From contig CAKSBH010000002.1 of NCBI GenBank assembly GCA_934438175.1, positions 156,780 to 220,779 on the forward strand: DNA of 64,000 bases. The letters run 5' to 3'. The stretch is from an uncultured Eubacteriales bacterium. Lineage in GTDB: Bacteria > Bacillota > Clostridia > Oscillospirales > UBA644. The position numbers and the translations under genes were made by a program. The first letter of the stretch is position 1; each line of letters starts with the position of its first letter. Shown here one piece after another: positions 42,310 to 45,004 of this stretch. Below the pieces are notes generated by a model, which saw only the letters and a list, made by a program, of their open reading frames with translations, did no database searches and was not told the origin of the DNA.

Positions 42310-42968
42310 ACATGGAGTATCGTGAACTGTGTTGGGAATCGTTTGCCCGGAAGGATCATTTTTCTTATTTTTCTTCCATGCAGAACCCGTATGTCGGCGT
42401 GACGGTGGAAACGGATATCGGGGAACTGCCCCGTTTGTGCAGGGAAACCGGAACCCCGTTTTTTCTGACCGTTCTGTATGCCGTGAGCCGCGCGGCGAAC
42501 GCCGTGCCGCAGTTGAGGCAGCGCATTGTAAACGGACGTCCCGTTGAGTTCGACCGGTGCGACACGTCTCATACGGTTCTCCGTCCGGACGGAACGTACG
42601 GCTACTGCCGTCTGCGGGAGGATGCTCCGTTTGAGGAGTTTCTTTTGTATGCCCGGCCTCTGTATGAAGCGGCGAAACATTCCGAGGGGCTGAAGGAGGA
42701 AGACGATCTTCTGGGCTGCTTTTTCGTATCTTCCCTGCCGTGGATTTCTTTTTCCTCGCTGGTGCAGCCGACCCCGACCCCGGCAGACAGCAATCCCCGG
42801 ATTGTGCTGGGAAAATATGTGCAGAACGGGCTCCGCTGGTCAATGCCCGTCGCGGTTCTGGCCAATCATGCGCTGGTGGACGGCGTGCATCTGGCTGCTT
42901 TTTACGATGCCCTTGCCGCCGGGCTTTCCGGGCTGGAGGATGCCTTGCGGGGAAAAAATAAAAACTGA
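42306..42968 (+). CDS. chloramphenicol-acetyltransferase-family (CAT-like) protein
   Basis: ATG 42306 overlaps the upstream stop (ATGA). CAT-family N-terminus (W..F.RK.HF..F) and catalytic region NHALVDGVH. Confidence 0.75.
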   Translation: MNMEYRELCWESFARKDHFSYFSSMQNPYVGVTVETDIGELPRLCRETGTPFFLTVLYAVSRAANAVPQLRQRIVNGRPVEFDRCDTSHTVLRPDGTYGYCRLREDAPFEEFLLYARPLYEAAKHSEGLKEEDDLLGCFFVSSLPWISFSSLVQPTPTPADSNPRIVLGKYVQNGLRWSMPVAVLANHALVDGVHLAAFYDALAAGLSGLEDALRGKNKN

Positions 42969-43024
42969 AAAAAGGGTCGCAGATCCGACGCCTCTTCGGG
43001 AGGACGCGGATGCGACCCTTTGTG

Positions 43025-43070
43025 CCGGAGACGTTTTCTTCCGAAACCGTCTCCGGTTTTTTGTTTTTTG
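43025..43070 (+). terminator. intrinsic terminator (second of two hairpins after the CAT-like gene)
   Basis: CCGGAGACG (43025-43033) / CGTCTCCGG (43048-43056), then TTTTTTGTTTTTT. Preceded by a long GC-rich imperfect hairpin at 42974-43018. Confidence 0.8.
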
Positions 43071-43071
43071 T

Positions 43072-43952
43072 TCAGTCCAGCGCGATGACGGTAATCATGC
43101 AGTCAAACGAATCCAGAATGAAATTGTAGTTCTCCTGCTCAAAAGAGAACGAAAGTTTGACCTGGGTATCCTTTGCGTTGTAAATCCGGTTGAAGACAAA
43201 GGATTGCTGAATGTTCCGTGCTTCCATGGCGCCTTCGTGGTGTTGGGTGCGTGTACGCCGCTTGCAGAGATCGTTGTCATAGCCGTCGGTCATCACAACG
43301 CAGAACTGCCCGTCGCAGTTGGTGCTTACGGCAATCGACCCGCTGATGCACACGCTGTAGGTATGGCCTTTTTTGAGTGTGATCGTATTCTGATTGCAGG
43401 ATACCAGACCGCCGGAGCTCAGTTTTTCCTGAAAATACGGGCGCGCCTTTTCTCTCTGAAGAAAAATACGGGGGGGGGGAAAAACCGCCGGTTGCGTAGA
43501 ACCAGCCCGTGCAGATGCCGTCGTTGCCCGGATCGCCTTTTTCCCCGGGATCGCCTTTGTCTCCCGGTTCTCCGTCGGATGCCGCCGCTTTCACGCCGGT
43601 GTCGGTCGTGCCGATCCACCAGGTTCCGTTTTCTCCGATGAAGGGCGTATCTCCATCCCTGCCGGGAAGCCCGTCAACGCCGTCGGTTCCGTCGCTGCCG
43701 GAGCGTGTCAAGAGATACCAGGTCGTGCCATTCGTTTCCGCTGCCGGTTTTCCATTGAATCGCCGTGCCGTTGTTGCGCACTTCCGGCAATTCGACGGTG
43801 CTGCCTGCCGGCTTGCTCCGTCCGGTAAACAGGAGAACCGTGCAAAGAATCAGAAGAAGGCAGCATACGGTCAGAAGAGTTCCCATCAAGAAATTCCGGT
43901 TGTTAAATTCCGGTTGTTTTTCATCGCGTTTCCTCCGTTTGAAAAATAGCAT
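43072..43952 (-). pseudogene. membrane-anchored collagen-like repeat protein, disrupted by two frameshifts
   Basis: Three consecutive minus-strand ORFs in three frames. (1) TM anchor plus IQWKTGSGNEWHDLVSLDTL. (2) GXY runs (GSDGTDGVDGLPGRDGDT, GEPGDKGDPGEKGDPGNDG) flanking FIGENGTWWIGTTDTGV. (3) ~130-aa beta-rich C-terminal domain. Frame changes occur near 43700 and at the C10 tract. No SD at the ATG. Confidence 0.7.
43470..43479 (-). repeat. homopolymeric tract, C10 on the coding strand (G10 on plus) followed by T5/A5
   Basis: Counted directly: G at 43470-43479. Site of the second frame change; a 9-C tract would join the middle and C-terminal reading frames. Confidence 0.9.
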
Positions 43953-44005
43953 CGCGGCGGTTTTTCGCCGATGCCCACACCGCGGAGGAGCATCGGCGGA
44001 CGGGA

Positions 44006-44599
44006 TCAGGTTTGATCGGGGGTGTTTGCTTTGTACCGTTCCACAAACAGTGCCACGCCCTGTTTCAGAAGATCCATCTGGGCTTTCAGGTAATATTCGT
44101 CTTCAAACATGGCGTAGTGTACGCATGCCCGCACAAAAATGAAGATCAGCGGTGTGATGACCGTATACGGAATGCCGATTTTCGGTTCCAGCTGTTTCGC
44201 GTATTCGGTATAGCGCGTGTTGACGCCCTCAAAGAATTTCTTGCCGTATTCCCGGTATTTCGGAAGCGTGTAGACCTGGTACATCAGACGGTATTTCTTG
44301 CCGTGCTCCTTCGCCGTCCAATACGGGACGGTTTCGATGAACCGCGGAACATCCCTGGGGTCGGTGGGGGCTTTGGACATAAACTCGTCCTCCACCTTTG
44401 CCATGCAGTATGCCGTCGATTCCAGAATCAGCTCATCCAAATTCCGGAAATAGCAATACAGATTGCCCGTTGTACAGTTGCATGCCTTCGCAAGGGCTTT
44501 GATGCCTGTGCCGGTCAGTCCGTTTTCGGCATAGCATGCAAAGCATTTTTCCATGAGTTCTTCTTTTTTCTCATTGTGCTGCTGTTCGGTTGTTTTCAT
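44006..44599 (-). CDS. TetR/AcrR-family transcriptional regulator
   Basis: ATG 44599 (MKTTEQQHNEKKEELMEKCFACYAENGLTGTGIKALAKACNCTTGNLYCYF) after GGAAGGA. 197 aa. Confidence 0.85.
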   Translation of the reverse strand: MKTTEQQHNEKKEELMEKCFACYAENGLTGTGIKALAKACNCTTGNLYCYFRNLDELILESTAYCMAKVEDEFMSKAPTDPRDVPRFIETVPYWTAKEHGKKYRLMYQVYTLPKYREYGKKFFEGVNTRYTEYAKQLEPKIGIPYTVITPLIFIFVRACVHYAMFEDEYYLKAQMDLLKQGVALFVERYKANTPDQT

Positions 44600-44633
44600 A
44601 AAAATCCTTCCCGTCAAAACCAACGGATTAATT

Positions 44634-44647
44634 GTTATTAGTATAAC
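44634..44647. promoter_or_regulatory. palindrome overlapping the TetR -10 (candidate operator)
   Basis: GTTAT-TAGT-ATAAC. Minus-strand TATACT at 44645..40, with TTGCCT 17 nt upstream. Confidence 0.35.
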
Positions 44648-44871
44648 ATATCTTTTATGAAAAGGCAAGTCCGGAACGCCGTTTCGGAGGAAAAATTACG
44701 GTTTTCGGAATATGGACCCGGAAAGGGACGGATTTTCGGGGAAATTCCGGCTTTGAGTCCGCGGGCGGATCTCTGTCCGGCATGCGGCGCGGAAAAGAAG
44801 CGGAAGCTGCGGGCGCTTCGGTAGATTCGGATGCTTTTTCCTCTGCGGAAAGCCGCGGGACGGGGAAACCG

Positions 44872-44916
44872 GTGAAAAAATAAAACCGTCAGACATCCTG
44901 GGATGTCTGACGGTTT
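44872..44916 (-). terminator. intrinsic terminator after tRNA-Leu
   Basis: Minus strand AAACCGTCAGACATCC / GGATGTCTGACGGTTT hairpin (44916..44883), then TTTTATTTTTT. Confidence 0.85.
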
Positions 44917-44917
44917 C

Positions 44918-45004
44918 TGGTGCGGACGGGGGGACTTGAACCCCCACGGGAAAACTCCCACTACCCCCTCAAAGTAGCGTGTCTGCCAATTCCACCACGA
45001 CCGC
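44918..45004 (-). tRNA. tRNA-Leu, anticodon GAG
   Basis: 87 nt: GCGGTCGTGGTGGAATTGGCAGACACGCTACTTTGAGGGGGTAGTGGGAGTTTTCCCGTGGGGGTTCAAGTCCCCCCGTCCGCACCA. Cloverleaf folded by hand: anticodon loop UUGAGGG, long variable arm, GTTCAAGT T-loop, encoded CCA. One U5-U68 mismatch in the acceptor stem. Confidence 0.9.

Follow-up and report, generated by a model that had tools for sequence, protein, structure and literature searches.

The gene described here lies on the minus strand of a 64,000-nucleotide stretch of DNA from an uncultured Eubacteriales bacterium (assembly GCA_934438175.1, contig CAKSBH010000002.1, positions 156,780–220,779 of the forward strand), which is referred to as the window throughout. 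At positions 43072–43952 of this window there are three consecutive open reading frames (ORFs), and we conclude with high confidence that together they form a pseudogene: they derive from one gene interrupted by three defined lesions, and these lesions are both reproducible and polymorphic across samples. The feature is a pseudogene of an unannotated member of the well-known collagen-like fibre proteins of bacteria and phages. An earlier note on this DNA, made from the sequence alone, had in outline read the locus as one gene for a membrane-anchored collagen-like protein with a globular head, and this outline stands; it was mistaken about the nature of the first frame shift, it missed a third lesion and with it the true start codon, and its estimate of the ancestral length was too low.

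A single gene in three reading frames

All-frame translation of the region 42700–44900 places the ORFs 43952..43674, 43711..43277 and 43353..43072 in three different frames of the minus strand, as the earlier note had described, and the same frames were recovered by tblastn. When an intact homologue of 399 amino acids (aa), P0001, was compared with the window, its residues 36–69 matched 43802–43701 in frame −3 (E = 3e-8), residues 184–307 matched 43690–43331 in frame −1 (E = 2e-25) and residues 266–399 matched 43473–43075 in frame −2 (E = 4e-65). The three frames of the window therefore match successive parts of one protein, a collinearity far beyond chance. Residues 70–183 of P0001 have no counterpart in the window by tblastn. 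The homologues are single ORFs, which excludes three normally separate genes lying side by side, and the pieces aligned collinearly with these homologues, as expected of one split protein. All of the motifs that had been quoted for it were found, namely the transmembrane helix, IQWKTGSGNEWHDLVSLDTL, FIGENGTWWIGTTDTGV between two runs of six Gly-X-Y triplets, and the C-terminal ...ITVIALD. The length of about 290 aa once given to the protein has to be revised, as the repaired form of one allele (haplotype C below) puts the ancestral length at about 390 aa.

The coding remains fall into three segments, all on the minus strand. Segment 1 (43702..43890) holds the signal-anchor helix FLMGTLLTVCCLLLILCTVLLF and the first stalk module EVRNNGTAIQWK...WHDLVSLDTL, as seen from the tblastn match to P0001, from the alignment and from a survey of 57 homologue N-termini. 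Segment 2 (43485..43697), defined by the frame −1 match and the alignment, consists of six Gly-X-Y triplets, the TPFIGENGTWWIGTTDTGVKA module, 6–7 further Gly-X-Y triplets and then CTGWFYATGG. Segment 3 (43072..43470) encodes a 132-aa head (RIFLQ...ITVIALD), predicted to be a TNF/C1q-like jelly roll, together with the stop codon. No other split gene in the window was noticed in a crude gene tiling based on GC content at third codon positions, which is not a rigorous method; the tiling left four gaps of at least 500 bp, the two largest of which are filled by ordinary long ORFs.

Three lesions

The nature of each lesion was read from other copies of the locus. All alleles discussed here are consensus metagenome assemblies, and the loci were found through the exact protein sequence of the neighbouring TetR regulator, which occurs in 11 contigs, and through the exact 93-aa C-terminal ORF, which occurs in 13 contigs; the contigs were built by different assemblers from independent metagenomes of the human gut.

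The first lesion (43891..43918, minus strand) is a tandem duplication of the 14-nt unit AACAACCGGAATTT, with copies at 43918–43905 and 43904–43891, that shifts the frame by +14 nt. The coding strand at the start of the gene reads GGAGG-N7-ATG AAA AAC AAC CGG AAT TTA ACA ACC GGA ATT TCT TGA, so that translation from the ATG at 43922..43924 (MKNNRN...) stops after only 12 codons in the window allele. The unit is duplicated in the window and in the contigs L001, L004, L005, L010, L011 and L014, and is single in L002, L003 and L007; alleles that lack the duplication read MKNNRNFLMGTLL... in frame. Removal of one AACAACCGGAATTT copy from the window sequence gives MKNNRNFLMGTLLTVCC..., which is in frame with the transmembrane helix and resembles the homologue start MK(T/N)GKKLLTGTLL, and because frame and N-terminus are both restored in this way, the ATG at 43924–43922 is taken as the true start. 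A Shine-Dalgarno (SD) sequence GGAGG, read from the sequence at 43932..43936 on the minus strand, stands 7 nt 5' of this ATG, and an equivalent GGAGG is found in the related loci L095 and L097. The ATG at 43952, which has no SD, is fortuitous and not the start of the gene; the absence of an SD that had been reported for the gene referred to that codon, and the count of two frame changes had overlooked the duplication, with which there are three lesions.

The second lesion is the junction CCGG (43698..43701, minus strand) of an out-of-frame deletion of 341 bp, recognized by comparison with undeleted alleles of the same species. Between CTTGACACGCTCC and ACGGAACCGACGG there are 348 nt in L002, L010, L013 and L014 versus 7 nt in the window, L001, L003 and L011, and since 341 leaves a remainder of 2 on division by 3, the frame is lost. 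The breakpoints share the microhomology CGCTCCGG / CGCCCCGG, and the deletion took out one Gly-X-Y run together with stalk modules 2 and 3. The first shift had been placed near 43698–43703 and ascribed to one extra C; its place is right (CCGG at 43701–43698) but its cause is the 341-bp deletion.

The third lesion is a pair of homopolymers, T5C10 on the coding strand (43470..43484, minus strand). The in-frame ancestral form would be T2C6, giving GGT TCC CCC CGT (G-S-P-R), where relatives have SPR or LPR, and the tract of the window corresponds to a net gain of 7 nt. Seen on the plus strand, the G10 at 43470–43479 is the only G/C homopolymer of at least 8 nt within the 64-kb window. Four forms of the tract were found, T5C10 (window, L001, L011), T4C9 (L003), T2C7 (L002) and T6C9 with an additional G>A change (L010, L013, L014), and none of these four is in frame. 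No homopolymer occupies this site in the closest relatives, which read GGCGGCTTACCACGT (L015) and GGTAATTCGCCCCGC (L098). The second frame change of the earlier note, located inside the C10 tract, is thus a real tract that is out of frame.

Alleles across samples

At least five haplotypes occur in the species and every one of them is broken. Haplotype A, that of the window, L001/L009 and L011, combines the duplication and the 341-bp deletion with T5C10 and has no other lesion. Haplotype B (L003/L012) has the deletion without the duplication, again with no other lesion, and the tract T4C9. Haplotype C (L002) has neither duplication nor deletion; it carries a TGG>TAG nonsense codon, a Gly>Glu change in a triplet and the tract T2C7, and with two single-nucleotide repairs it yields a 390-aa protein collinear with the orthologue in L015. 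Haplotype D (L010, L013, L014) lacks the deletion and has the same TAG codon, an extra 63 bp of Gly-X-Y sequence in frame, and T6C9 with the G>A change; the duplication is present in L010 and L014, and L013 begins within the repeat and was left unscored. Haplotype E (L004, L005) has the duplication without the deletion, and both contigs stop before the rest of the gene, with the tract outside their coverage.

The gene is fragmented in every contig that covers it, and the 93-aa C-terminal ORF was called as a separate gene in 13 of 13 contigs. Finding the same lesions in separate samples shows that they did not arise as random errors, and the claim that the breaks are no assembly artefacts is upheld by their recurrence in independent samples and assemblers. 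A 1-kb contig of the same species, L007 (1–1024), shows a further change at the start codon of the fibre gene, ATG>CTG; after ...EVRNNGT it continues with unrelated sequence (VPVFASIKLHQSWVRKENVTDADGN...) that is not in the window; the contig may be chimeric, or the sequence may reflect a rearrangement or a different allele.

No intact allele of this species was found among the consensus assemblies and public collections searched. The best protein retrieved with the reconstructed query from the 90%-identity representatives of a 15-billion-protein collection is only 58% identical to it, and hence no intact allele of the species is on record. Two exact-pattern scans of JGI metagenome contigs returned no further alleles, and the window's own species was absent from the results of a scan of genome contigs, in which L015 came nearest (68% in the best segment). 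The earlier note had proposed looking for intact alleles in related strains; none came to light within the species, whereas the orthologues of other genomes are intact.

The intact family

A reconstructed protein of 280 aa has about 965 relatives, the best 120 of which are single proteins of 333–479 aa covering 89–100% of the query. Their Pfam annotation is Collagen only, and the one example that bears a name is listed as a hypothetical protein (Vescimonas sp.). Among the intact orthologues found, the nearest is the 413-aa ORF of L015, a metagenome-assembled genome (MAG) of an uncultured member of Clostridia, whose head domain is 85% identical. According to the alignment, the family begins with MK..KK and a hydrophobic anchor, followed by a stalk of three modules of the form (I/L)QW(K/R)Y..(E/D)W..L..L..LKG with Gly-X-Y runs after each; then come a TPFIGENGNWWIGxTDTGVKA module, more Gly-X-Y and a C-terminal domain of about 135 aa that ends in ITxIALD. 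Most of the 57 homologues surveyed start with MK(T/N)GKK and a hydrophobic segment of 24–25 residues, which fits an uncleaved signal-anchor, and some carry a lipobox instead (LFAGC, LAAGC or LFSGC, and by eye also GIAC or GVAC). With signal-anchor and lipobox alike the protein would, from its sequence, be tethered outside the membrane.

The Collagen model (PF01391) was matched by all ten family members scanned (best E 4.8e-20). The remnant in the window, with its 12–13 Gly-X-Y triplets, scores 19.3 bits against a cut-off of 27.2, and it falls below the threshold because few triplets are left. Beyond Collagen, Pfam and NCBIfam gave only sub-threshold Scl/Lcl matches. The stalk modules match tail-fibre and tail-assembly families of PHROGs, namely phrog_19976 (E 1e-27), phrog_6320, phrog_5073 and phrog_1806.

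Related genomes can hold two copies of the family, in tandem in L015 (42–746 and 913–2154) and L026 (3168–3542 and 4505–4852), and at separate loci in CP091722.1 (L016, L023). The upstream copy in L015 has a different module in place of the FIGENG module. To judge from these sequences, the family appears to diversify by duplication and module shuffling.

The head domain

An AlphaFold2 model of the head (window translation 43470–43075, alignment of 58 sequences) is all-beta, with a predicted local distance difference test score (pLDDT) of 85.7 and a predicted template modelling score (pTM) of 0.80. Compared with the Protein Data Bank (PDB) by Foldseek, the model is similar to 4-1BBL (E 4e-4, template modelling score (TM-score) up to 0.61), TL1A, EDA-A1, FasL and TNF, and also to the Photorhabdus TNF-like lectin PLTL, the short-fibre CBD of cyanophage A-1(L) (8ke9) and the spike knob of phi812 (9eul). 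In BFVD it resembles phage proteins named 'Collagen triple helix repeat', 'BclA protein' and 'C1q domain'. TM-scores range from 0.5 to 0.68 for TNF-superfamily ligands and the phage BclA/C1q proteins, and the head is accordingly predicted to adopt a TNF/C1q-type jelly roll; the structure prediction that had been proposed for the C-terminal domain thus supports the expected fold at the level of AlphaFold2, Foldseek and BFVD.

Sequence models are silent on this domain. The BclA_C model (PF18573) has no match at E <= 1 in the reconstructed protein and nine intact homologues, nor have the TNF (PF00229) and C1q (PF00386) models in the same ten sequences, and PHROGs gave no match for the head. Sequence matches to the PDB, by profile and by single sequence, reflect Gly-X-Y low complexity only and are uninformative on the head or the modules; likewise the entry 8zxl ('spindlefibril/axialfibril') and animal collagens were matched through Gly-X-Y only, and the literature under those names added nothing. 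The head is a rare domain, with 46 cluster representatives (50% identity) matched at E <= 1e-3 among 1.84 billion. It is C-terminal in full-length matches, and a few long matches have several partial internal ones: P0152 (1607 aa), P0160, P0173 and P0183 contain 4–15 partial head-domain matches each, and these may either repeat a portion of the jelly roll or reflect composition.

The regulator and the genomic context

Directly upstream of the fibre gene lies an intact gene for a TetR/AcrR-family regulator of 197 aa (44006..44599, minus strand). In 11 other loci (L017–L024, L026, L095, L097) a TetR orthologue likewise immediately precedes the fibre gene on its strand, and the distance from regulator to fibre gene is about 80–90 nt in the window, L095 and L097. 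In those loci the TetR proteins are 76–83% identical to that of the window, compared with 33–61% for the fibre heads. The 90%-identity cluster of the regulator has 888 members, named TetR/AcrR and assigned to Oscillospiraceae or Ruminococcaceae, and NCBIfam gave only sub-threshold AcrR-like matches for the window protein. The wider neighbourhoods differ in L095 and L097, the two loci with neighbour genes listed, and are housekeeping contexts.

A promoter scan found, 5' of the TetR gene on the minus strand (44618..44668), a promoter-like site TTGCCT-17-TG-TATACT (44668..44640) and an imperfect dyad at about 44633..44618. An alignment of 10 loci upstream of TetR shows a conserved cTTGa-17-TGnTATACTA followed by a dyad of the type AAC(T/G)-N-(A/C)GTT, and these sequence elements are likely to be the promoter and operator of a two-gene unit. 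The scan returned no promoter-like site between TetR and the fibre gene, and the arrangement points to a bicistronic unit under TetR autoregulation. That the TetR gene is kept while its downstream partner decays suggests that the regulator has other targets.

Between the two genes (43950–43990, minus strand) there is a hairpin, GCAUCGGCG-AAAAAC-CGCCGCGAUGC, followed by UAUUUUU, and an upstream arm CGCCGAUGC that could pair alternatively in the manner of an attenuator. An attenuator or terminator at this place was considered and dropped, since the fold is no better than that of shuffled sequences (z = −0.7). Downstream of the pseudogene two stable hairpins (42965..43056, minus strand) occupy the space between convergent genes, with an RNA fold of −55.4 kcal/mol (z = −6.6, 0 of 200 shuffles as good). 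The second, at about 43021–42971 and followed by U6, reads as the intrinsic terminator of the pseudogene; the first, with a plus-strand terminator-like site at 43043–43060, would serve the plus-strand CAT-family gene (~42312–42968), so that the pair looks like a bidirectional terminator.

On one side the locus is flanked by YicC, RemA, Gmk, PriA, Def and Fmt, and on the other by the CAT-family gene, SprT-like, GT2, PurA and PurB. A tail fibre gene borne by a prophage was therefore rejected: the stalk matches phage fibre families, yet the locus sits among housekeeping genes and has no genes of phage origin nearby. A gene for tRNA-Leu(GAG) (44918–45004, minus strand) lies immediately upstream of the cassette of TetR and fibre gene. 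A tRNA occurs near the cassette in two of 11 related loci, tRNA-Asn in L023 and tRNA-Pro in L024, and with so few loci and differing tRNAs the adjacency was rejected as a general sign of an integrated element; the tRNA-Leu is probably there by coincidence and not as an integration site.

Origin and meaning of the broken gene

We propose that the ancestor was a protein of about 390 aa, anchored on the outside of the cytoplasmic membrane by an N-terminal signal-anchor that is not cleaved, with a stalk in which Gly-X-Y runs would alternate with short beta-rich modules like those of phage fibres, and a head of about 130 aa folded as a TNF/C1q-type jelly roll. If BclA, the knobs of phage fibres and collagen-stalked TNF ligands are taken as guides, the intact protein was probably a trimeric cell-surface fibre whose head bound a ligand; the collagen stalk would project from the membrane through the wall and present the head. 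The fibre gene was probably co-transcribed with the upstream TetR repressor and controlled by it. In this species the gene has become inactive and is being eroded by events of replication slippage and microhomology, and the window allele, with its duplication, deletion and expanded T5C10 tract, should give no full-length product. The sequences show descent from one gene, the three lesions with their recurrence and variation between samples, the lack of an intact allele, the conserved pairing with TetR and the predicted fold. We infer trimerisation, surface display, ligand binding and control by TetR, and likewise the choice between neutral and selected loss.

If the frameshifts were artefacts of sequencing or assembly in an intact gene, such as miscalled homopolymers, the T5C10 pair would be the classic place for them, and the window is after all one consensus sequence. 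A 14-nt duplication and a 341-bp deletion are, however, not errors of the homopolymer type; the window allele is exactly repeated in L001 and L011, as another allele is in L010, L013 and L014; the undeleted alleles bear a TAG nonsense codon, and the 93-aa ORF is separate in all of its contigs with no intact allele in the protein collection. We regard this explanation as very improbable. Still less credible, and close to negligible, is programmed recoding, in which frameshifting or transcriptional slippage at C10 and elsewhere would restore a full-length protein. The segments are still free of internal stops, and long homopolymers can promote transcriptional slippage; but a full-length product would require three unlike shifts (+14 nt, −341 nt and a net +7 nt) to be overcome, no shift is conserved, the orthologues are plain single ORFs, other alleles have different lesions that include a nonsense codon, and there is no slippery sequence at the deletion junction. 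A phase-variable contingency gene, whose surface fibre is switched by slippage of the T/C tract and perhaps by the duplication, has somewhat more to recommend it, as a surface structure is the usual target, the tract differs in length between haplotypes (T2C7, T4C9, T5C10, T6C9), and the occurrence of all four combinations of duplication and deletion hints at recurrence. Even so it is improbable: no tract allele is in frame, every allele covering the gene has an irreversible lesion (TAG or the 341-bp deletion), and tract length is constant within a haplotype across samples. The tract is also missing from the closest intact orthologues and is therefore not a conserved switch.

Selected loss deserves more weight, although we consider it the weaker account of how the gene was lost. 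Under this explanation the fibre was a liability, for instance as a phage receptor or a target of antibodies, and was knocked out repeatedly. Surface fibres are common targets of selection for loss, several distinct disabling lesions segregate, and the TetR partner is perfectly conserved. Against it, the tract is out of frame in every allele that covers it and TAG is present in every allele that keeps its region, so that the data are explained just as well by a single ancestral knockout and subsequent neutral erosion; there are five haplotypes by which to judge whether the lesions arose independently. A more far-reaching possibility is that the intact family is an undescribed class of TetR-controlled, membrane- or lipid-tethered surface fibres of gut commensals, with a wall-crossing collagen stalk and an ectodysplasin-like TNF-fold head that binds a host, glycan or phage ligand, and that the repeated, differing lesions of this species represent selected shedding or switching by slippage in the repeats instead of neutral decay. 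We hold this to be rather unlikely.

Some points weigh against the pseudogene of a surface fibre that we favor. The alleles are those of consensus assemblies, in which minority in-frame variants of the tract within a population would not be visible. The head and stalk segments are free of internal stops and 75–85% identical to intact orthologues, which implies that the decay is recent, and residual function of the fragments may formally be possible. All four combinations of duplication and deletion are found, and recombination or recurrence is needed to account for them. The function proposed for the family is drawn from its architecture and from the predicted fold of a monomer, whose TM-scores to TNF ligands are only 0.5–0.6.

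With the pseudogene as the preferred reading, the annotation should treat the three ORFs as a single pseudogene with three defined lesions and not 'correct' them as assembly errors. The analysis also defines a narrow and unannotated family of human-gut Oscillospiraceae, with a membrane-tethered collagen stalk and a TNF/C1q-like head, and offers a starting point for work on the surface fibres of uncultured gut Clostridia and on how these are regulated. At the population level it provides an example of how a repeat-rich surface gene erodes by tandem duplication, microhomology deletion and homopolymer expansion.

Comparison with known systems

The streptococcal Scl1/Scl2 and the Lcl protein of Legionella are collagen-like surface proteins whose NCBIfam models match the family described here. 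These matches are confined to the Gly-X-Y region and score 43–59 bits against cut-offs of 325–500, and Scl has the opposite polarity, its globular domain being N-terminal and its LPXTG anchor C-terminal. Phages have tail fibre and minor tail proteins of the collagen-like kind, with C1q/TNF-like knobs; here the stalk modules match PHROG families and the head resembles these knobs. They differ from our family in that the latter has a membrane anchor, housekeeping neighbours and an upstream TetR gene, and its head is without a PHROG match.

The earlier note had called the architecture BclA-type. This holds for the order of parts and for the predicted fold: BclA and BclA-like collagen-like proteins of Bacillus and Clostridioides, found in the exosporium or at appendage tips, likewise consist of an N-terminal anchor, a polymorphic Gly-X-Y stalk and a jelly-roll head of about 130 aa, and here too alleles and species differ in how many collagen repeats they have. 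It does not hold for the sequence models and the N-terminal leader. The BclA_C domain (PF18573) has been assigned to the TNF/C1q superfamily (PMC12357932), whereas our family has no sequence match to PF18573, C1q or TNF. Its N-terminus, as read from the sequence, is a signal-anchor or lipobox and not an exosporium leader; three or four non-collagen modules interrupt the stalk, a TetR gene accompanies the fibre gene, and the hosts are gut Oscillospiraceae in which we saw no link to spores.

For the mode of working, the nearest analogue may be ectodysplasin A1 (EDA-A1), a eukaryotic type II membrane protein with the same topology of anchor, short collagen-like stalk and TNF-fold head, whose structure (PDB 1RJ7) has a TM-score of 0.52–0.57 to the head model. 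Identity is only 6–9%, and nothing points to a shared ancestry; the host here is bacterial and the stalk has extra modules, so that the resemblance to EDA-A1 is one of design only.

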